From IMG/VR virus record IMGVR_UViG_2695420487_000015: a DNA stretch of 39,156 nt. One strand, 5' to 3'. Origin of the DNA: a virus (Duplodnaviria > Heunggongvirae > Uroviricota > Caudoviricetes). Positions 3,285-39,156 of the stretch are shown piece by piece (the stretch's first letter is position 1; each line of letters starts with the position of its first letter). Position numbers and translations under genes: made by a program. The notes under the pieces are model-generated. The model made no database searches. It saw only the letters and a program-made list of their open reading frames with translations, and was not told the DNA's origin.

Positions 3285-3749
3285 TTAAGCCCCCACCTTA
3301 GACAGCAGATCGCCCGCTTTACCGACCAGACTCTCGGCCTGTTTTCCGATATCGCCATAGACCGCCGCGAGCGATTCATCGACACGGGTCAGTGACAGAG
3401 TAAAGCTGATTTTTCGTGGCGACCCGTCCTCAAAAAATACCGTGCCGGTCTCCGAGACATTGCTGACAATAAACATCCCGTAAATCCAGCCCGAGCCAGA
3501 AATAAGCGGCCATGCTCGCCCCTGCTCGGCCATCGCATAAAGCGTCAGCATCGAAAACTTGCCGCCGGTCAGCTCAGGATACAGGTCACCGCTCAGGGTG
3601 ATTTTGTCCTCCCCTTCACCGAGATACTGAAAAGCATCACGTTTCCCGATGCGGGAGTTTGACGCCCAGCTATAATCCGCGCTGCGCTGCATGCTCTGAT
3701 AGGGCAACGTCTGACGCATAAAAACAAACATACCTAGTGCCAGCATCAT
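3285..3749 (-). CDS. U: Tail protein U
   Basis: 154 aa; position between T and D as in P2. Confidence 0.75.
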   Translation of the reverse strand: MMLALGMFVFMRQTLPYQSMQRSADYSWASNSRIGKRDAFQYLGEGEDKITLSGDLYPELTGGKFSMLTLYAMAEQGRAWPLISGSGWIYGMFIVSNVSETGTVFFEDGSPRKISFTLSLTRVDESLAAVYGDIGKQAESLVGKAGDLLSKVGA

Positions 3750-11627: not shown

Positions 11628-11975
11628 TCAACTCACAGGAATAGTCAGTGACAGGGTTTTGCCGGTGTCCCGGGCCTCGCCGGTCAGCTCAACAATCATC
11701 TGACCGTTAAACTGACGCTCGACCGTCAGCGAGCTGATGCTGATGCGCGGCTCCCACTTCAGCAGCGCCATATAACAGGCGCACATAATTTGCAGCCTCA
11801 GCGCGTCGGTCTGCGGCATATCAATCAGGGAGAACAGTAGCGAGCCATAATCGCGGCGCATCACGCGAGATCCAACCGGCGTTCGCAAAATATCGCCACA
11901 GCTCTGACGGATGTGATCGGCGTCAGTGATAGCTCGCCCTGTCTCGCGATTCATGCCGATATATCGGGTTGTCAT
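11628..11975 (-). CDS. W: Baseplate protein W
   Basis: 115 aa, the same length as P2 gpW. Confidence 0.85.
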   Translation of the reverse strand: MTTRYIGMNRETGRAITDADHIRQSCGDILRTPVGSRVMRRDYGSLLFSLIDMPQTDALRLQIMCACYMALLKWEPRISISSLTVERQFNGQMIVELTGEARDTGKTLSLTIPVS

Positions 11976-12698: not shown

Positions 12699-13412
12699 TT
12701 GGATAACAAGGAATATCAGAGGCACTTTGGAATAATAACTGATGAATTACAAAAGCCTTCCGATAAACATTTGAGAGCATTTACGCAGGTTGCTGACATT
12801 AGAAAGTTTGAAATTGAGATGTATTGGAAAAGAGCTACGTATTTCTGGACCATTATTGCTATTACTTTTACTGGTTATTTTGCTTTAGCCTCCGCAAATA
12901 GCTTTCCGTTCAAAAATGCATTTTCTCTTTTGCTTTCCAGTATGGGATCCGTTTTTACTCTTTCATGGTTTTTGGTAAACAGAGGTAGCAAATACTGGCA
13001 GGAAAACTGGGAAAATCACTTAGACCTGATGGAAAACGGCATAACTGGGCCGCTCTATAAAACTGTACTCTCACGACCGTCAGTCGAAGCCAAAAAAAAC
13101 GCACCTCAACTTGCGAGTACTGATAAAGATTTTATCGACAAACATATCACCGGCCCCAAAAAAATATCAGCATCCAAAATTAACCAATTAGTTGCATTTT
13201 ACTTGCTTGGCATATGGTTAATATTAGTAATGACAACAATTACTAACATCTTAAAACTATCATTCTGGAGTGAATCCACGATAGAAGTAGTGTTGAGCGT
13301 GGGAGTTTTAATTTGGTCAGCAATAGCCACTAGTTTAATGTTTTGTAAGTCAGCCACCTATACAGGAATACAGACTTCAGAGGCAAGAAAACGCTCTTCG
13401 AATTTGTTATAA
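12699..13412 (+). CDS. Cargo gene: predicted four-helix membrane protein of unknown function
   Basis: AT-rich ORF with four hydrophobic segments. Track start is a TTG at 12699 preceded by AAGAGGA; the first ATG is at 12819. Lies between tail genes V and S. Confidence 0.6.
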   Translation: MDNKEYQRHFGIITDELQKPSDKHLRAFTQVADIRKFEIEMYWKRATYFWTIIAITFTGYFALASANSFPFKNAFSLLLSSMGSVFTLSWFLVNRGSKYWQENWENHLDLMENGITGPLYKTVLSRPSVEAKKNAPQLASTDKDFIDKHITGPKKISASKINQLVAFYLLGIWLILVMTTITNILKLSFWSESTIEVVLSVGVLIWSAIATSLMFCKSATYTGIQTSEARKRSSNLL

Positions 13413-13680: not shown

Positions 13681-14757
13681 TTATTTTCGTTTGCCATAAG
13701 ACTGGGTTAGAATCGGAGTAATATCCTTAGTAAAGATATCTAGTCTTTCTTTTTCGGCTGAGAAAACATACTGTCTGGCTTGAATTACATTTTGCCTACT
13801 AATTAAGTTTGACACCTTTTCTGGTTTGCTTAGTGCAACTTTGGCACCCTTGAATATCAACGCTAAGCCCGGTGATATTGTAAAAATACATCCATTATCA
13901 AATGAAAAATCATTTTTTAAGAAAATAAAAGGAAAATCACTTGAAACAATGGCATATCCCTTAGGTGCTGAGTACAAATATACCCTACAACTACTCTCAT
14001 TGGTGATTGAGGAAAAAGGTAACGCCATAAATCTATGCATCTTTCTAAGTAAGTAAAACATTTCCCTCCGCTGTCCGCTGTCCGCATTAACTAGATACGT
14101 TCCTCCCTCCTTTAGTATAGATAACAAAGACCTCCATTCAGAACGTGGGATTATGCTCGCACCAGAAGGAATGAGATCCTTATTAGTATTCAGTACTTTC
14201 TTGATGGTGGTGTTTATATTTTTTAATTTTGGCATGGAGCCTTTATCAAAAAAATCATCCATACCTTTGTTTCTATAACATAAAAAACGGGCCATGAAAA
14301 TTGCCATGTTTTTTAAATCGTTGAAATCAATCTCATGCAAACCACTACATACTATCGAACGTGCGAATTTTTTTTCCGAAAGCTTGCCAAGCAACCAGTG
14401 TCTACGCACGAAATAATGACTACCTGAAGCATTTTTAAAATGCTCCTTTAATTTATAAAATTGCCACATTGCGTCTACAAAATCAGGGTAACAATCCTCT
14501 AGTATTTTAAAACTGTCCTCAATAAAGTTATCTCTATCCCCATCAATATAAAGAGTATGCCTTCGCTCTTGACCACAAATTTTTGTGGCATTAAGAAAAG
14601 TAATCCTTTCTTTTATTTGCTTTTTGGTGGCATCTGTTTTCACAAAACCATAAACAGTATCTTTCCCAGTCTTTGGGTCTTCAGATGTTATTTTAAAATG
14701 CCTGATATAAGTTGCAGGCAGATAATGCTGATAGTTTTGAAAAGTTCCCTTTGACAT
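13681..14757 (-). CDS. Cargo gene: DUF4238-like protein, candidate single-gene anti-phage defense protein
   Basis: AT-rich, 358 aa from the ATG at 14757, preceded by GGAGG and only 13 nt after the S stop. N-terminal HYLPATYIRHF resembles the DUF4238 signature as I recall it. Confidence 0.6.
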   Translation of the reverse strand: MSKGTFQNYQHYLPATYIRHFKITSEDPKTGKDTVYGFVKTDATKKQIKERITFLNATKICGQERRHTLYIDGDRDNFIEDSFKILEDCYPDFVDAMWQFYKLKEHFKNASGSHYFVRRHWLLGKLSEKKFARSIVCSGLHEIDFNDLKNMAIFMARFLCYRNKGMDDFFDKGSMPKLKNINTTIKKVLNTNKDLIPSGASIIPRSEWRSLLSILKEGGTYLVNADSGQRREMFYLLRKMHRFMALPFSSITNESSCRVYLYSAPKGYAIVSSDFPFIFLKNDFSFDNGCIFTISPGLALIFKGAKVALSKPEKVSNLISRQNVIQARQYVFSAEKERLDIFTKDITPILTQSYGKRK

Positions 14758-14770
14758 AGTAACCTCCAAT

Positions 14771-22448: not shown

Positions 22449-23485
22449 TGAGCAAGAAACGCAACAAGCGCCAGCAGCAGCCGCGCACTCAAAACCACAC
22501 CGCCGCACCGGCGCAGAGCATGGAAGCATTCACTTTTGGTGAGCCGACGCCGGTACTCGACCGCCGCGATATTCTCGACTACGTCGAGTGCATCGACAAC
22601 GGCCAGTGGTACGAGCCGCCGGTGAGCTTTTCCGGGCTGGCGAAGAGCATGCGCGCCGCCGTGCATCACAGCTCGCCGATTTACGTGAAGCGTAATATTC
22701 TGGTATCGACCTACATCCCGCACCCGCTGTTATCCCGTCAGGACTTCACCCGGTTTGCGCTCGACTATCTGGTGTTTGGTAATGCGTTTATCGAAGAGCG
22801 TCGCGGCCTGACCGGCAAGCCGTTAAAACTGGAAACTTCACCGGCGAAATATACCCGCCGTGGCATCGAGGATGACGTGTACTGGTATATTCAGTCCTAC
22901 ACGCAGCCGCACCAGTTCGCGCCCGGCTCCGTCTTCCACCTGCTCGAGCCCGATATTAATCAGGAGCTTTACGGGATGCCGGAATACCTGAGCGCGCTCA
23001 ATTCAGCCTGGCTGAATGAATCGGCGACACTGTTCCGTCGCAAGTATTACCAGAACGGCGCACATGCGGGTTACATCATGTACGTGACCGACGCGGCGCA
23101 AAGCAGCGCTGACGTCGAGGCGCTGCGAAAGGCGATGCGCGACTCAAAAGGGCTCGGCAATTTTAAGAACCTATTTTTCTACGCACCAAACGGTAAAGCC
23201 GACGGGATTAAAATTGTGCCGCTGAGCGAAGTTGCCACGAAGGATGATTTTTTTAATATCAAGAAAGTCAGCGCCGCTGACCTTCTCGACGCGCACCGCA
23301 TCCCATTCCAGCTTATGGGCGGTAAGCCCGAGAACGTCGGCTCAGTGGGTGACGTTGAGAAGGTGGCAAAGGTCTTTGTGCGTAACGAACTGACCCCGCT
23401 ACAGGCGCGGTTTATGGAGCTGAACGAGTGGGCGGGTGAAGAGATTATCCGCTTCGAAAAATATAGCCTCGGCGACGACGAGTAA
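22448..23485 (+). CDS. Q: Portal protein Q
   Basis: Start at ATG 22448 (MSKKRNKRQ), which overlaps the P stop as TAATG; 345 aa, close to P2 gpQ in size. Confidence 0.85.
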   Translation: MSKKRNKRQQQPRTQNHTAAPAQSMEAFTFGEPTPVLDRRDILDYVECIDNGQWYEPPVSFSGLAKSMRAAVHHSSPIYVKRNILVSTYIPHPLLSRQDFTRFALDYLVFGNAFIEERRGLTGKPLKLETSPAKYTRRGIEDDVYWYIQSYTQPHQFAPGSVFHLLEPDINQELYGMPEYLSALNSAWLNESATLFRRKYYQNGAHAGYIMYVTDAAQSSADVEALRKAMRDSKGLGNFKNLFFYAPNGKADGIKIVPLSEVATKDDFFNIKKVSAADLLDAHRIPFQLMGGKPENVGSVGDVEKVAKVFVRNELTPLQARFMELNEWAGEEIIRFEKYSLGDDE

Positions 23486-23661
23486 CCCCACCTACAGCCG
23501 CCCGTCGTGGCGGCTTTACCCCCACCGCACACAACACCCTCAGCGCCACGACACGCCGTCGCCGCTTCGCTTCACCTCGTAACTCACCCACTACAACAAC
23601 AACGCCACAGCGACGCGCCCAGGCGCTGAATAAATAAATTAAATACCACGCTCAGCGCGCA

Positions 23662-23680
23662 ATGCTATCCCCGCCACGCC
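23662..23680. other. Candidate cos site (19-nt cohesive end)
   Basis: Reverse complement reads GGCGTGGCGGGGATAGCAT, resembling P2/186 cohesive ends as recalled; located just downstream of Q as in P2. Confidence 0.45.
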
Positions 23681-23827
23681 TGCCCGCTTTATGGGTCGGT
23701 TTTAATGCAGTTGCATGACCACTCTGGATCTGCGCCAGCTCTGGCATTACACGTCCAGAACTAGCAAGCCTTGCGAATGCAAAACCATGCTTCTTATACA
23801 TGCACAGCTAAAAACAGAAAATAACAT

Positions 23828-23855
23828 AAAAAAACCGGCATCAAGATGCCGGTTT
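23828..23855 (-). terminator. Intrinsic terminator downstream of the acyltransferase gene
   Basis: Hairpin CCGGCATC..GATGCCGG followed on the minus strand by a 7-nt T-run. Confidence 0.6.
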
Positions 23856-23952
23856 AGTTCATATCATATCATGCTTGCACTTGTGGCCTATAAATGTGCT
23901 GAAAATACTATTAAGTAAAACATCCATGATCATCGTTCTGCTGAAGCCCTGT

Positions 23953-25170
23953 TTAATTAGCTTTATCAAGGCGTCCCCCCACCACCATCCGCTTGTAATT
24001 TATTGCGAACAACTTAATTTTTTCAGGGAACTTTGACGCCAAAATTATTGACTTTCTGTCTACATATGAATAAAAGGGCATTGATATCAAAATAGTTATC
24101 ATCGAAGTTAAGATAAATGTAACAAACGCACCAACGGACGGCGACGCAATGTTTTTGTAAACCCAAAAACCAACTATAGATATAACAAATGGATGAAGCA
24201 AGTATATTGAAAATGACAACTTCCCAATAAACAAGACTACATTTTTGCTCATCCCCCTTAAACATCTCCCATTCACAAAGACAGAAGCAATAATCAAAAA
24301 AGAACCAAGCGATATTGTAAACTCTGGCCATTGTATTAATATACCGCATTGAAACTGAAGGTAGAGGTAAAATTCAACCAGATCTTTATACGCAGTGCTC
24401 GCCGGTGCATACCCAACAAGATAAAGGCCAATAAACAACATAAGAAGCGATACAAACTTTCTTAACCGTCCATTATTTTCACTTATCTCGAAAGTTGATA
24501 AAAACACACCAGAAAGGAAAAGCCCATAATAAATTACATTAATACTACCAGACAAAAACATGCAAACAAATGAAATAAACGACAACCAGCGAAGAATGGT
24601 CTTGTTCTCACCAAACAGAGATATAAATCCGTATACCAATATAGAACCAAAAAACTCAATACTAATAGTCCACAGAACATAGTTATACTTTATATTACCA
24701 AAAAGCATAGCGCCAAATGAAGCATCCCATATGGCTGACACTATATTCCCATCAAAACTAAACGCAGTCATTAACGGCATTGATGCAGCGGGGCTATCCT
24801 TATCCGGAAAAAAGCCCAACAACATTATAAAATAGCAAATAATCACAGATGCTGCTACGGGAACCCCAAGCCTAATGTATCTCTTCAATGCTGATGCTTG
24901 TATATAACGTATTTCGTTATTATTTTTTTGGCAACTCAGTGACAAAACCAACCCGCTCAAAACAAAGAATAAGCTAACAGCAGATCCCCCCTTATAGAAA
25001 AAAGTAAAAGGGCTATTAAATAAATTTTCTTGCCACTTGCTATCAAACATACTGCCAGAATGCACCGAAGGTATAAACATTAAAAATGAATGCGATAAAA
25101 CGACAGCCATGGCTGCCACACCTCTTATCCCATCAAAGATTTTTACATTATTTCTCTCATTATCACTCAT
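23953..25170 (-). CDS. Cargo gene: acyltransferase family 3 membrane protein (O-antigen/LPS acetylase type)
   Basis: AT-rich, 405 aa, about 10 hydrophobic segments, N-terminal DGIRGVAAMAVVLSHS motif typical of acyltransferase-3; sits in the cos-to-A interval, the P2 tin/old slot. Confidence 0.75.
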   Translation of the reverse strand: MSDNERNNVKIFDGIRGVAAMAVVLSHSFLMFIPSVHSGSMFDSKWQENLFNSPFTFFYKGGSAVSLFFVLSGLVLSLSCQKNNNEIRYIQASALKRYIRLGVPVAASVIICYFIMLLGFFPDKDSPAASMPLMTAFSFDGNIVSAIWDASFGAMLFGNIKYNYVLWTISIEFFGSILVYGFISLFGENKTILRWLSFISFVCMFLSGSINVIYYGLFLSGVFLSTFEISENNGRLRKFVSLLMLFIGLYLVGYAPASTAYKDLVEFYLYLQFQCGILIQWPEFTISLGSFLIIASVFVNGRCLRGMSKNVVLFIGKLSFSIYLLHPFVISIVGFWVYKNIASPSVGAFVTFILTSMITILISMPFYSYVDRKSIILASKFPEKIKLFAINYKRMVVGGRLDKAN

Positions 25171-25268
25171 GCAAAAAACCTTTTATAATAAAAAATGTCA
25201 TTTCGATTAACGTATTGTATTGGTTATTATTGTGTTATAACTGACAATCAACCTTAAAAAAACGCGGC

Positions 25269-25297
25269 ATTATAGCACCTTAAGCCTGTTGTATGAA
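25269..25297 (-). promoter_or_regulatory. Candidate sigma-70 promoter for the acyltransferase gene
   Basis: Minus-strand TTCATA, 17-bp spacer, TATAAT. Confidence 0.3.
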
Positions 25298-25463
25298 TAT
25301 CATTATTGTTTTGACAGGAAGAGTTCCGTTTACGCCCCACCTAACCTTCGGAGCACTGAGTAGTGCTCCCAATGAGGTTGGAATAAGGGGAGATTCAAAA
25401 AATAGCTGACCATTCTATGCAGGCAACCCAACTACCAGCATACAACTTGTTTTTTCTCGCAAC

Positions 25464-25646
25464 TTACTCAGCCTTTGTTAATCGTTCTTCAGCATGGGTT
25501 GCAGAGAAAACCAGTGAAAAGGAGTTATTTTTCATCAAGTTGCCTCTCACTATTTCTGCAATCAAATTCAATGCGATTTCACGGTCTCTTTCCTTACAAG
25601 TCCCTTCAGCCGTTAGACGCGCAATCATTTCGACTCGCTCAATCAT
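25464..25646 (-). CDS. Small hypothetical protein (60 aa) downstream of a LexA box; candidate SOS-controlled antirepressor-like gene
   Basis: First ATG at 25646 with a weak RBS; charged, helix-like composition. The track's longer ORF starts at a GTG and would contain the LexA box. Confidence 0.3.
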   Translation of the reverse strand: MIERVEMIARLTAEGTCKERDREIALNLIAEIVRGNLMKNNSFSLVFSATHAEERLTKAE

Positions 25647-25691
25647 AACGTGCTCACTTAATTCTCTATCCACACAACCTCCACAACGAGA

Positions 25692-25711
25692 TACTGTATA
25701 AACATACAGTA
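25692..25711 (-). promoter_or_regulatory. LexA box (SOS operator)
   Basis: TACTGTATAAACATACAGTA: exact CTGT-N8-ACAG palindrome with AT-rich spacer, close to the E. coli LexA consensus; 46 nt upstream of the small ORF. Confidence 0.55.
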
Positions 25712-25789
25712 ACACATGTTGATAAAAAATGTGAAGGAAAAAAACCAATAAATACACTGTATGTGCATGATATGGATGAATATTAACGG

Positions 25790-28030
25790 TTATATTTTCA
25801 TTGCCAGTTCAGTTAAAACCGCAACGCGATTGAGGATTTCTGTAGCTTTGGTCTGATGTTCCTTAGCTCTATCTTGATGCGATGGCGCTGCGGAAAATAT
25901 TTCGCCTTTGGCCGTTCCGCGTAACCATTTACCATCAAAACAACTTTTACCACCGACCATCAGGTGCAGGGCTTCGCCCCGGCTGATAACGATGCCAGTT
26001 GTCAGATGTATCTCGTCGATAATTTTCGCTAAAACTGCGTTTTGCTCATTCGTTCCGTGAATGAATTTTCGCCGTATTTGTGGTTTTTGCTTCCTGAGTC
26101 GGTTTGTCAGCTCTCGTCTTTCACGTCGACTCAAGGGTTTTGATAAATCGAGTTCCGGTGGATCGCTTTCGCTTCCCGTATAGTTATTGACAGAACTCCG
26201 AGAGGGCGCAGGAGCGCCCTTAACGTCAACGGCCAAATCAACGGCACGCTTCGGCACAATTTTCCACTGCGTTAACCGGGTTAAAATCGGGGTGCCAGCG
26301 CCGACAGCAGAGTCGTAGACGCCACGAATGCAGACGGTTTCCTCACCATACTGGTTAAACTCGGGGCGCGGCTCATACAGCGTGCGCACCTGTAAATCAT
26401 CGCGACAGACAAACGGACCACCCTGCGCACTAACGTAACCAGCCCAGTCACCGGCGTCAGCGGCATCATGGACGGCAGCAAACTCAACGCTCAGACCGTG
26501 CGCGGTCTCGGTATCAGCGAGACGACGTAATTCACGGTAGACCGTCACCGGCGCACCGCCGATAAACTGGAACTGACGGATGTGCCAGCGCGCCGCCCAT
26601 GCTGATACGGCGGGGGCTGTCTCTTTCAGCAGCTCACCGCTTTCGTCATCGGTTTCACCATCAAGAGCATATCCGTCGATGTTTTTGGAAATGTATTTAG
26701 CGACATAGCCGGTAGCGCTGCCCTTTTCTGGGTCAATGGCTTCGGCATGAAAGCGCGCTTTTTTGGCTTTATCGCTTCTCAGTTCATGGCGGTCTTCCTC
26801 CCACGCATAATCACGGATGATGAGACGCACACTCTCGACGTCTTCCGGCAACATGAACATAAGCATGTGCCAGTGCGGCGTTCCGTCGTGATGAGGCTCA
26901 GCAACACGGATGCCGAAAATGCGGATTTCTTCCCGGTGTAGCTTGGCGCGTATGCGTGCCCAAAGACCGGTTAGATAGCTCTGCGTGTCCGAAGGGCTGG
27001 CACCGTTCCATTTGCTATTACGGTAGCCCGCTTTAGTCGTGGCGTGATATTTAGACGGTGCGGTTAAAGTGTAAAACTCACCGACATAACCGAGCTCATT
27101 GCAGATATTTTCAAACCCACGGATGCGGGTCATCAGCTCGCAGCGACGTATTGCAGGGTTAGCAACCGAACCATCGTATTTTTCAATCAGACTGATGCGG
27201 TTGCCGTCTTCGTCTTCGAGCTCCAGTCCTTTAAGAAATTCGCGCGTGCGGCGTTTCTGCTCGCGCCAGTCAGTCACGCAGTTTTTACTCGCGTAGGCGT
27301 GCTTTTTCTTACTGACGTTGCCAACAGCAATTTGTAGATGTTCGCGCCATGCAGACGCAATGCGACGTAAACGACCACGCCACCAAACCTCATTAAACAT
27401 GCGCATTACTGCCGGTGCGATTTCATCCTCACCAAAATATTTTTTAGTCACACGCTCCCATTTCGGCGGTGTAACGTTGAATTGCAGGGAAATAAAACCG
27501 GCGCGCATGTACCAGGCGTACAGCGTTTTGAGTTCGCTAAATCCGGTGTCATCAATATCAGCCAGTTCAGCACGAATGAAATTAGCGATATCAGCGGCAA
27601 GCAGGTCAATATCAGCGCGCGACATATCCGGGAGGCGGTTAAATCTGGCGACCATATTGACCATGCGTGACGCCAGATATTGCATAAGCTGGGTATCAAA
27701 ATGACCATCGAAAACAGAGGCTGATACATTGCTGTTGATGCCCGAGCACTCATATTTTTTTGCGACGAGTTCAAGACGTGGCAATGCCTTTTTGCAGAAG
27801 CTGATTAAAAAGGCATTGGCTCGTTGACTGCCCTGATTTTGCTCCAGTACCGCAGCGGTACGATAAACATCAAAGCGCACACACTCTGGCTGGAGAGAAA
27901 GCACCGTTCTCGCATGCAGCAAAGCCGCGAACATACGGTCGCGGCGATGCTGTTGGTCATAGGTAAGATATGGGCTGGCTAATGCCGACCGTGGGGCATT
28001 CCACGGAAACGCGTAAACTACACCCGTCAT
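25790..28030 (-). CDS. A: Replication initiation protein A (rolling-circle nickase)
   Basis: 746 aa; size and position match P2 gpA. Confidence 0.85.
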   Translation of the reverse strand: MTGVVYAFPWNAPRSALASPYLTYDQQHRRDRMFAALLHARTVLSLQPECVRFDVYRTAAVLEQNQGSQRANAFLISFCKKALPRLELVAKKYECSGINSNVSASVFDGHFDTQLMQYLASRMVNMVARFNRLPDMSRADIDLLAADIANFIRAELADIDDTGFSELKTLYAWYMRAGFISLQFNVTPPKWERVTKKYFGEDEIAPAVMRMFNEVWWRGRLRRIASAWREHLQIAVGNVSKKKHAYASKNCVTDWREQKRRTREFLKGLELEDEDGNRISLIEKYDGSVANPAIRRCELMTRIRGFENICNELGYVGEFYTLTAPSKYHATTKAGYRNSKWNGASPSDTQSYLTGLWARIRAKLHREEIRIFGIRVAEPHHDGTPHWHMLMFMLPEDVESVRLIIRDYAWEEDRHELRSDKAKKARFHAEAIDPEKGSATGYVAKYISKNIDGYALDGETDDESGELLKETAPAVSAWAARWHIRQFQFIGGAPVTVYRELRRLADTETAHGLSVEFAAVHDAADAGDWAGYVSAQGGPFVCRDDLQVRTLYEPRPEFNQYGEETVCIRGVYDSAVGAGTPILTRLTQWKIVPKRAVDLAVDVKGAPAPSRSSVNNYTGSESDPPELDLSKPLSRRERRELTNRLRKQKPQIRRKFIHGTNEQNAVLAKIIDEIHLTTGIVISRGEALHLMVGGKSCFDGKWLRGTAKGEIFSAAPSHQDRAKEHQTKATEILNRVAVLTELAMKI

Positions 28031-28043
28031 TTATTCTTCCGTG

Positions 28044-28352
28044 TCAGTATGATGCACATAATAGCTCCCTCAGCTTTGCTGCAAGAATTTCAATAGCGTA
28101 TTCATTAGGGAAGAGAGAGATTGAAAGAATTACCCAATTAGTTCCAAATTGGATGTAATCTCTTACTGGTAAAATATGAGTTATTTCGACCAGCACTACT
28201 TTTGAGGTGCATTCATTACGAAACTCATTCAATAAAAGGTAATCACCACAACGGAAATTACGGTCATCTACTCGCAGTTCTGCTTTTTTTGTTCCATCGC
28301 ATACTGCTTCGAAATGTTCAGTAGTTATCTTTAAACAATGAATAGTTCTCAT
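28044..28352 (-). CDS. DUF3850 / ASCH-like small protein
   Basis: Start at ATG 28352 with a GGAGG RBS; MRTIHCLKITTEHFEAVCDGTKKAELRVDDRNF resembles the DUF3850 N-terminus (recollection). Confidence 0.55.
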   Translation of the reverse strand: MRTIHCLKITTEHFEAVCDGTKKAELRVDDRNFRCGDYLLLNEFRNECTSKVVLVEITHILPVRDYIQFGTNWVILSISLFPNEYAIEILAAKLRELLCASY

Positions 28353-36600: not shown

Positions 36601-39156
36601 ATGAAATTTATGAACAGGACCAGTCCCTATTATTGTCGCCGCTCAGTACTTTCCTTATTGATATCTGCCTTGATATATGCCCCGCCCGGGATGGCTGCCT
36701 TCACTACTAATGTTATTGGTGTGGTAAACGATGAGACTGTAGATGGCAACCAAAAAGTGGATGAACGAGGTACAACAAATAACACTCATATTATCAACCA
36801 TGGCCAGCAGAATGTTCATGGCGGGGTATCTAATGGAAGTCTTATTGAATCTGGTGGATATCAAGATATAGGAAGTCATAACAATTTTGTGGGGCAGGCT
36901 AATAATACAACCATTAACGGTGGCAGACAGTCAATTCATGACGGGGGTATTTCCACAGGTACGACAATCGAGAGTGGCAATCAGGACGTTTATAAAGGGG
37001 GTATCAGCAATGGAACGACAATTAAGGGCGGTGCTTCACGCGTAGAGGGAGGGAGTGCGAATGGAATACTCATTGATGGTGGTAGCCAGATAGTAAAAGT
37101 TCAAGGGCATGCTGATGGTACAACGATAAATAAGTCTGGCTCTCAGGACGTAGTACAAGGAAGTCTGGCAACGAACACAACCATAAATGGTGGTCGACAG
37201 TATGTTGAACAGAGCACAGTAGAAACAACAACCATTAAAAATGGCGGTGAGCAAAGAGTATATGAGAGCCGTGCGCTGGACACGACGATTGAAGGCGGAA
37301 CTCAGTCTCTGAATAGTAAGTCAACGGCAAAAAATACGCATATCTATTCTGGTGGCACGCAAATTGTTGATAACACCAGCACCTCGGATGTTATTGAAGT
37401 TTATTCTGGTGGCGTGCTTGATGTTAGTGGTGGTACGGCAACAAATGTTACCCAGCACGATGGTGCAATTTTAAAAACTAACACTAACGGTACGACGGTG
37501 AGCGGTACGAATAGTGAAGGTGCATTCTCCATCCACAATCACGTGGCAGACAATGTGTTGCTGGAAAACGGTGGTCATTTAGACATAAACGCATATGGTT
37601 CGGCAAACAAGACGATTATTAAAGATAAAGGAACAATGTCAGTTTTAACCAATGCTAAAGCTGATGCGACCCGAATAGATAATGGCGGGGTTATGGATGT
37701 TGCAGGAAACGCGACAAATACCATAATTAATGGTGGCACACAGAATATTAATAATTATGGCATAGCCACAGGCACCAATATCAACAGCGGAACGCAAAAT
37801 ATCAAAAGCGGCGGGAAAGCTGACACAACAATTATATCCTCCGGGAGCCGGCAGGTTGTTGAGAAAGATGGTACGGCAATTGGCAGCAATATTAGCGCCG
37901 GAGGCTCGCTGATTGTCTATACCGGCGGTATTGCACATGGGGTTAACCAGGAGACGGGCAGTGCTTTAGTTGCCAACACGGGTGCAGGGACTGATATCGA
38001 AGGATACAACAAGCTCTCTCACTTCACTATTACCGGAGGGGAGGCTAATTATGTTGTGCTGGAAAATACCGGCGAACTGACGGTAGTGGCTAAAACCTCG
38101 GCGAAAAATACTACCATTGATACTGGCGGTAAGCTGATTGTCCAGAAGGAGGCTAAAACAGATAGCACCAGACTTAATAATGGCGGCGTTCTGGAGGTTC
38201 AGGACGGTGGTGAGGCTAAGCATGTTGAGCAACAATCCGGCGGCGCATTAATTGCTTCCACGACCTCCGGAACACTTATCGAAGGAACCAACAGTTATGG
38301 TGATGCTTTCTACATCAGGAATTCAGAAGCTAAAAATGTAGTGCTGGAAAACGCTGGCTCATTAACAGTCGTCACTGGTTCCCGCGCAGTTGACACGATT
38401 ATTAATGCCAACGGCAAAATGGATGTTTATGGAAAAGATGTTGGCACTGTACTCAATAGTGCTGGCACCCAAACAATATATGCCAGTGCCACTTCTGATA
38501 AAGCAAATATCAAAGGTGGCAAGCAAACGGTATATGGTTTAGCCACTGAAGCAAATATCGAAAGTGGTGAACAAATTGTTGATGGTGGGTCAACAGAGAA
38601 AACACACATCAATGGTGGCACGCAAACCGTTCAGAATTATGGTAAGGCAATCAATACCGATATCGTCTCTGGCCTACAACAAATTATGGCAAACGGGACA
38701 GCGGAAGGTTCCATTATTAATGGGGGTTCACAGGTAGTTAATGAGGGCGGTCTGGCTGAAAACTCGGTGCTTAATGACGGCGGCACACTCGATGTGCGGG
38801 AGAAAGGCAGCGCAACGGGGATACAGCAGAGTAGCCAGGGCGCTTTGGTTGCAACCACCAGGGCGACGCGGGTCACAGGAACACGCGCGGATGGCGTCGC
38901 GTTCAGCATCGAGCAGGGTGCGGCGAACAATATCCTGCTGGCAAATGGCGGCGTGTTAACCGTGGAGTCAGACACCTCTTCTGACAAAACACAGGTCAAT
39001 ATGGGCGGACGGGAGATCGTCAAAACAAAAGCCACTGCGACAGGCACGATGAACCGCCCCGGGTTTCCTGGAGAGTGTTTTATCTGTGAACTCAGGCTGC
39101 CAGATCATCGTTTCCGATGGAAGCATAATAAGCTTTTTCTGCTTCTGCCGGAGGAG
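36601..39156 (+). CDS. AIDA-I-type autotransporter adhesin, 5' partial (runs off the window end), ypjA-like
   Basis: Open frame from ATG 36601 to the window end; extended signal peptide (MKFMNRTSPYYCRRSVLSLLISALIYAPPGMAAF) then dozens of about 19-residue repeats of the T.I..GG.Q.V..GG.A type. Confidence 0.75.
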   Translation, partial: MKFMNRTSPYYCRRSVLSLLISALIYAPPGMAAFTTNVIGVVNDETVDGNQKVDERGTTNNTHIINHGQQNVHGGVSNGSLIESGGYQDIGSHNNFVGQANNTTINGGRQSIHDGGISTGTTIESGNQDVYKGGISNGTTIKGGASRVEGGSANGILIDGGSQIVKVQGHADGTTINKSGSQDVVQGSLATNTTINGGRQYVEQSTVETTTIKNGGEQRVYESRALDTTIEGGTQSLNSKSTAKNTHIYSGGTQIVDNTSTSDVIEVYSGGVLDVSGGTATNVTQHDGAILKTNTNGTTVSGTNSEGAFSIHNHVADNVLLENGGHLDINAYGSANKTIIKDKGTMSVLTNAKADATRIDNGGVMDVAGNATNTIINGGTQNINNYGIATGTNINSGTQNIKSGGKADTTIISSGSRQVVEKDGTAIGSNISAGGSLIVYTGGIAHGVNQETGSALVANTGAGTDIEGYNKLSHFTITGGEANYVVLENTGELTVVAKTSAKNTTIDTGGKLIVQKEAKTDSTRLNNGGVLEVQDGGEAKHVEQQSGGALIASTTSGTLIEGTNSYGDAFYIRNSEAKNVVLENAGSLTVVTGSRAVDTIINANGKMDVYGKDVGTVLNSAGTQTIYASATSDKANIKGGKQTVYGLATEANIESGEQIVDGGSTEKTHINGGTQTVQNYGKAINTDIVSGLQQIMANGTAEGSIINGGSQVVNEGGLAENSVLNDGGTLDVREKGSATGIQQSSQGALVATTRATRVTGTRADGVAFSIEQGAANNILLANGGVLTVESDTSSDKTQVNMGGREIVKTKATATGTMNRPGFPGECFICELRLPDHRFRWKHNKLFLLLPEE

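Follow-up and report, generated by a model that had tools for sequence, protein, structure and literature searches.

Ag43, TibA and AIDA-I are self-associating autotransporters, and YpjA, also named EhaD, falls into the same phylogenetic group (PMC9289746). When expressed, YpjA is reported to promote both initial adhesion and the formation of biofilms, and reviews describe its structure and its mode of binding as still uncharacterised (PMC3796261; PMC9289746; PMC12547504). Self-association, which is known for Ag43, AIDA-I and TibA, has not been demonstrated for YpjA (PMC9289746). Here, we analysed a stretch of DNA of 39,156 nucleotides (nt) (IMG/VR record IMGVR_UViG_2695420487_000015, referred to below as the window), the end of which carries the 5' part of an Escherichia coli ypjA gene, and the analysis indicates that this copy of the gene is probably interrupted by an insertion sequence (IS) of the IS1203/IS629 type. 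In type Va secretion, the protein is exported through the Sec system, after which the beta-barrel assembly machinery (BAM) inserts the C-terminal barrel in the outer membrane; the passenger, a beta-helix, is threaded out and folds from its autochaperone end. Intact YpjA is predicted to begin with a signal peptide and a long right-handed beta-helix passenger; a pertactin-like autochaperone and a proline-rich linker would come next, and a C-terminal 12-stranded beta-barrel would display the passenger on the outer membrane, leading to adhesion and biofilm formation.

On the plus strand, an open reading frame (ORF) begins with an ATG at position 36601 and has no stop codon before the window ends (39156). 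Its product was identical to K-12 YpjA (b2647, 1526 amino acids, annotated as adhesin-like autotransporter YpjA/EhaD), the EhaD of enterohaemorrhagic E. coli, at 811 of 812 residues (99.9%) in an ungapped alignment over residues 1–812, with the same probable signal peptide and the same repeat array. The ypjA segment was likewise identical, at 2439 of 2440 nt, to the intact ypjA of E. coli strain 10 (NZ_CP048330), which served as the reference for the scripted comparisons. The gene also occupies the same position as in K-12, downstream of an ileY-type tRNA, ypjCB, a recombinase fragment and an ORF of 39 amino acids, and the amino acid identity together with this K-12-like chromosomal position places the product in the YpjA/EhaD orthologue group. 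Unlike K-12, the present DNA has a P2-family prophage, about 32 kb long, that separates the tRNA from ypjCB. The region is identified by its sequence as the already known chromosomal gene ypjA (ehaD) of E. coli, which encodes an autotransporter of the AIDA-I/Ag43 type.

The homology to ypjA stops at position 39049 (...ACAGGCACGA) in every genome compared, including K-12 ypjA and the O157:H7 locus, and from 39050 the window reads TGAACCGCCCCGGGTTTCCTGGAGAG..., which is the terminal inverted repeat of IS1203/IS629. The remaining 107 nt (39050–39156) matched, at all 107 positions, one end of a 1310-bp IS1203-family element located in ypjA of O157 strain 272 (NZ_CP018239), where it is annotated as an IS3-like element IS1203 family transposase. 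These nucleotides represent the transposase-distal end of an IS3-family IS1203/IS629 element, which starts with TGAACCGCCCCGGG and lies on the minus strand, in the opposite orientation to ypjA. The 3' end of the transposase gene (39092–39156, minus strand, ...PPAEAEKAYYASIGNDDLAA*) runs off the window end; its translation is the C-terminus of the annotated O157 transposase, and its stop codon is 42 nt from the IS end. Both the inverted repeat, beginning with TG, and the adjoining C-terminus of the transposase (OrfB, ...YYASIGNDDLAA*) are those of IS629/IS1203 of the IS3 family.

The 5' fragment of ypjA/ehaD extends from 36610 to 39049 (plus strand) and comprises codons 1–813 and the first base of codon 814, of 1526, which sets the break after nt 2440 of the 4581-nt gene; an uninterrupted ypjA reading across 39049 would contain ...ACAGGCACGACGCTCACCGGCGG... 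In the intact strain 10 allele, the AIDA repeats are accompanied by a Pertactin domain (residues 1057–1179), a proline-rich part (1179–1240) and an Autotransporter beta-domain (PF03797, 1265–1504), and all of these C-terminal domains (residues 1057–1504) lie beyond the break. The 813 encoded residues contain no autochaperone or pertactin-like domain, and within the window the frame exits ypjA at 39049 into IS1203/IS629, with no in-frame PF03797 beta-barrel. In contrast to K-12 YpjA, where the gene is continuous, the present allele is interrupted at codon 814, and the autochaperone, linker and barrel are not contiguous with the passenger. If the element is the same as the O157 copy, the read-through is predicted to add 78 IS-derived codons before a stop.

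The sequence-only reading had described the gene as truncated by the window and continuing beyond it, which does not hold, as ypjA ends at 39049 and is followed by IS1203/IS629. It had itself named early stops, or the lack of a beta-domain downstream, as signs that would speak against it, and in part this is what was found: IS sequence follows the break, and a stop is predicted after the 78 codons, provided that the IS resembles the O157 copy.

With a probability of roughly 85%, the locus is a ypjA gene interrupted by IS1203/IS629, and thereby a null allele, a pseudogene that arose when an IS recently transposed. The loss of function is inferred, because the signal peptide and half of the passenger would be severed from the autochaperone and the barrel. 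According to this interpretation, IS1203/IS629 would have transposed into ypjA after nt 2440 in the opposite orientation, and the visible frame would encode the signal peptide and about half of the passenger, fused to the IS-derived codons. Such a product may be exported to the periplasm and would then be stranded there, neither translocated nor anchored. The rest of the IS would lie past the window end, probably followed by the 3' half of ypjA, and this 3' fragment would have no signal peptide. The gene family is that of type Va autotransporters, yet the present allele appears to be broken.

The insertion is probably recent, because near-identical genomes keep ypjA intact and the junction is absent from all 5,426 complete E. 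coli genomes. The window from 23000 to 39049 is collinear with strain 10 and a few other genomes, and differs from strain 10 at 2 of 16,050 positions; in the near-identical genomes, ypjA is intact (4581 nt), and ssrA and smpB come directly after it. Judged from these comparisons, the insertion is a young event that is private to its lineage.

Disruption of ypjA was also observed in other lineages. Sequence of ypjA was present in 3,099 of the 5,426 complete genomes, with a coverage of at least 80% in 2,754 of them, and the nucleotide identity of the alleles across E. coli ranged from 93 to 100%. In O157:H7, the PKPD linker of ypjA is interrupted at nt 3633 by IS1203, accompanied by a duplication of GAC. 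This allele, as found in strain 272, resembles the present one in the gene affected, the IS type, the opposite orientation and the identical 107 nt; it differs in the insertion point, which is in the linker at nt 3633 rather than inside the beta-helix repeats at nt 2440, and in its ypjA backbone, which is 98.6–98.8% identical. The two insertions are, by this sequence evidence, independent events. In PCN061 and 2018-11-3CC, IS1 lies within the first 2440 nt of ypjA, and STEC17-183 has a fragmentary (36%) ypjA match where the annotation shows an IS3-family transposase. Many other E. coli genomes retain just the first 439 nt or so of ypjA, or other partial pieces of it. IS disruption of ypjA is recurrent and a common kind of lesion.

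Several points weigh against an interrupted gene. Just 107 nt of the IS are within the window, so its completeness, any target-site duplication and what became of the 3' part of ypjA are out of view. The window stops within a repeat element, as short-read contigs typically do, which gives a misjoin during assembly a low probability. The absence of the exact junction from the complete genomes, given above as a sign of recency, also means that the interpretation draws on one sequence; in addition, exact-pattern scans of GTDB representative genomes and of JGI metagenome contigs matched neither the left junction nor the predicted right junction (IS end, 0–8 nt, then ypjA from nt 2441 on).

The alternative that survives best, while still improbable, is that the IS borders a larger deletion or inversion through which the 3' half of ypjA, and perhaps DNA on the ssrA side as well, was lost. 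Only one end of the IS is in view, a search elsewhere in the window for 3' ypjA sequence, as an IS-mediated inversion would leave it, found none, and the partial pieces of ypjA kept by many E. coli genomes, including the 439-nt remnants, agree with such a loss. Nothing in the window speaks in its favour, however, and the closest relatives have the simple ypjA–ssrA arrangement, with ssrA and smpB immediately downstream. No other IS1203 copy was found elsewhere in the window. A deletion or rearrangement of this kind would have the same outcome for ypjA, namely inactivation.

An assembly artefact, in which ypjA is intact in the source strain and an IS end was misjoined at the contig end, is very unlikely. 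The window does end 107 nt into a multicopy element, and the junction is unique among all the collections searched. However, ypjA gives way to the IS precisely where the IS inverted repeat begins, as real transposition predicts, and a chimeric join needs shared sequence, whereas ypjA and the IS share none. Moreover, contigs ending inside an IS are the usual signature of a true insertion in short-read assemblies.

Slighter still is the chance that IS629/IS1203 in ypjA acts as a reversible OFF switch, in which precise excision, in lineages that carry the IS-excision enhancer (IEE), could restore the adhesin at a useful frequency. The independent IS hits (the present site, the O157 linker site and the IS1 sites of other strains) would then be due to selection to switch or lose a surface antigen, and not to neutral decay. 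In O121:H19, IEE-promoted excision of IS629 is reported to have restored lacZ (PMC9397093). Nothing in the window bears on this idea.

The least probable explanation, to which we give next to no weight, is the one in the sequence-only reading, that an intact adhesin gene is cut by the window edge alone and that its repeat array expands and contracts to produce phase or antigenic variation: the ORF is stop-free up to the window end, the passenger is repetitive at the protein level and the alleles are polymorphic, but the last 107 nt belong to IS1203/IS629 and not to ypjA, and, as described below, the array has neither the DNA repeats nor, among the sampled records, the length differences that such variation would leave.

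The passenger domain itself was borne out as that of an autotransporter adhesin, both by the identity to K-12 YpjA and by Pfam AIDA (PF16168), which matches the ORF product in 10 stretches (E = 1.7e-122). Among the NCBIfam models, matches were obtained to Ag43, AIDA-I and the strand-loop-strand repeat TIGR04415. The Ag43 and AIDA-I equivalog scores were 315 and 236 bits, far under the cut-offs of 1200 bits, and the assignment of the ORF to Ag43 or AIDA-I proper was rejected; the sequence comparison indicates that YpjA is a paralogue within the Ag43/AIDA-I group. The solved structures nearest by sequence are the AidA-I-family adhesin 7ko9, Ag43 (7koh, 7kob, 4kh3) and TibA 4q1q, with E values of 1e-25 to 1e-34. 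YpjA shares with Ag43, AIDA-I and TibA the Pfam AIDA repeat type, a rung of about 19 residues and the homology to 7koh, 4kh3, 4q1q and 7ko9. It differs from Ag43 and AIDA-I in the equivalog scores and in the lack of a Dam/OxyR-type GATC cluster upstream.

A period of 17–19 residues is the established rung of the AIDA/Ag43-type beta-helix, and the AIDA stretches, the homology to solved beta-helix passengers and a periodicity of 17–19 residues were all found in the ORF product. As shown by the BLOSUM62 autocorrelation of the mature part, with 500 shuffles as background, the strongest signal is at lag 18 (z = 9.9), followed by lag 19 (z = 6.9); lag 17 forms a shoulder, and harmonics are seen at 35–37 and 53–55. 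An iterative repeat profile, seeded with 15 hand-picked units, recovered 33 repeat units from residue 46 to residue 810. The start-to-start spacings were mostly 18 (8 times), 19 (6 times) and 17 (4 times), with a few of 14–23, and four gaps of 50–57 residues correspond to a longer conserved segment, ...GGALxxxTxxGTxIxGTNxxGxAFxIxxxxAxNVVLENxGxLTV. The array of degenerate beta-helix rung repeats of 16–19 residues, consisting of the 33 units and the four longer segments between runs, occupies 36778–39039 (plus strand; residues 57–810) according to the autocorrelation, the profile parse, Pfam AIDA, TIGR04415 and the structural homologues. The array of degenerate 19-residue repeats that had been proposed is real; its period is not fixed at 19 but ranges over 17–19 residues, and 18 is slightly more frequent than 19.

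At the DNA level, the array is not a tandem repeat. Tandem Repeats Finder detected no array in the repeat-coding region, its sole item being 24 nt in the signal-peptide region. The direct repeat families in the ypjA segment are 16–54 nt long with 63–88% identity, the longest exact direct repeat in a k-mer search was 14 nt, and blastn of the 3' half of ypjA against the 5' half gave no match. As DNA, the sequences that encode the protein repeats have diverged too far to be a recombination substrate.

The length of the array was compared between strains, as had been suggested, using 60 records evenly spread down the ranking from 100% to 93% identity. The uninterrupted segment was 2440 or 2434 nt long, with a few records of 2438–2439 nt that have 1–2-nt deletions, and no repeat-unit-sized insertion or deletion (about 54–57 nt) was found among the 60 records. 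No simple-sequence repeats and no homopolymers of 7 or more were present in the segment read, and slipped-strand switching is unsupported in the visible sequence. There is a single GATC in the 600 nt upstream of ypjA, with no cluster, and Ag43-style phase variation through Dam/OxyR is equally unsupported. Neither tandem nor simple repeats with copy-number polymorphism, as in a repeat-driven contingency locus, were found, and neither the expansion and contraction of the array by recombination nor the phase or antigenic variation ascribed to it is supported. The variation of ypjA between strains consists of point divergence and of inactivation by IS, frameshifts and deletions.

In the O157 strain 272 locus, a proline-rich tandem repeat linker of the PKPD type (11780–11843 and 13154–13200 of that locus) flanks the IS1203 insertion. 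This linker, which joins passenger and barrel and lies beyond the window, is the sole true DNA-level tandem repeat seen in ypjA, and copy-number variation in the gene, if any, would be located there.

With regard to the start of the gene, the ATG at 36610 is in frame with that at 36601, and the real start is most likely 36610, because a probable Shine-Dalgarno sequence, GAGG (36597–36600, plus strand), is spaced 9 nt upstream of it and the RefSeq orthologue annotations use the start MNRTSPYY. The same GAGG directly abuts the ATG at 36601, the start that had been assumed earlier. Read from the translation, the first residues, MNRTSPYYCRRSVLSLLISALIYAPPGMA (36610–36696, plus strand), followed by A, are a probable Sec signal peptide in which a basic N-region precedes a hydrophobic core and a G-M-A motif, and they are identical in K-12 YpjA.

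The DNA immediately upstream of ypjA (33600–36600) is AT-rich, with a GC content of 37.4% compared to 48.9% for the whole window. A recombinase pseudogene fragment (36035–36202) and a conserved hypothetical ORF of 39 amino acids (36426–36545), both on the plus strand with coordinates transferred from strain 10, lie just upstream of the gene, which suggests that ypjA is situated at the remnant of an old integrated element by the tRNA. Further upstream, ypjCB (34325–35698, plus strand) is split by an internal stop into a DUF5507 ORF (34325–34807) and a DUF5508 ORF (34907–35698). This split is common to K-12 and strain 10, and O157 strain 272 is annotated with one intact gene of 1350 nt.

The P2-family prophage occupies the window from about 1700 to 33570 and includes genes for capsid, terminase, portal, tail, replication gene A and CI/CII-type regulators, with an integrase at 30803–31810. 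It fills the gap between a tRNA with a CAT anticodon (1598–1673, the ileY position) and ypjCB, a gap that measures about 750 nt in K-12. At the far prophage end, a partial tRNA annotated in RefSeq as tRNA-OTHER is present in strain 10, corresponding to about 33470–33574 of the window.

Several prophage genes are located where accessory genes may be expected. An ORF of 498 amino acids (31821–33317, minus strand) lies in a typical cargo position between the integrase and the prophage end; it had no Pfam and no PADLOC match, is annotated as a hypothetical protein in strain 10, and may be an accessory or defence gene of the phage that is as yet uncharacterised. An acyltransferase gene (Acyl_transf_3, E = 3.9e-25; 23953–25170, minus strand), between the portal gene and the replication endonuclease, may be a lysogenic-conversion gene for acylation of surface polysaccharide, and a truncated DinI gene adjoins it in strain 10. 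Among the structural genes, an 8xMP octameric membrane protein (PF24838, E = 3.6e-36; 12699–13412, plus strand), which had no PADLOC match, and a protein matching DUF4238 slightly above the cut-off (E = 2.2e-6; 13681–14769, minus strand) are possibly further prophage cargo.

The locus should be labelled ypjA::IS1203/IS629 (pseudogene), and not as an intact or phase-variable adhesin. The insertion, being very recent and lineage-specific on the present comparisons, could be used as a strain-typing marker. Its significance extends little beyond annotation, as it concerns a broken copy of a characterised and poorly understood adhesin gene. It adds a further independent case of ypjA inactivation by insertion sequences, and this recurrent inactivation fits the possibility that ypjA is dispensable or counter-selected in many E. 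coli lineages.

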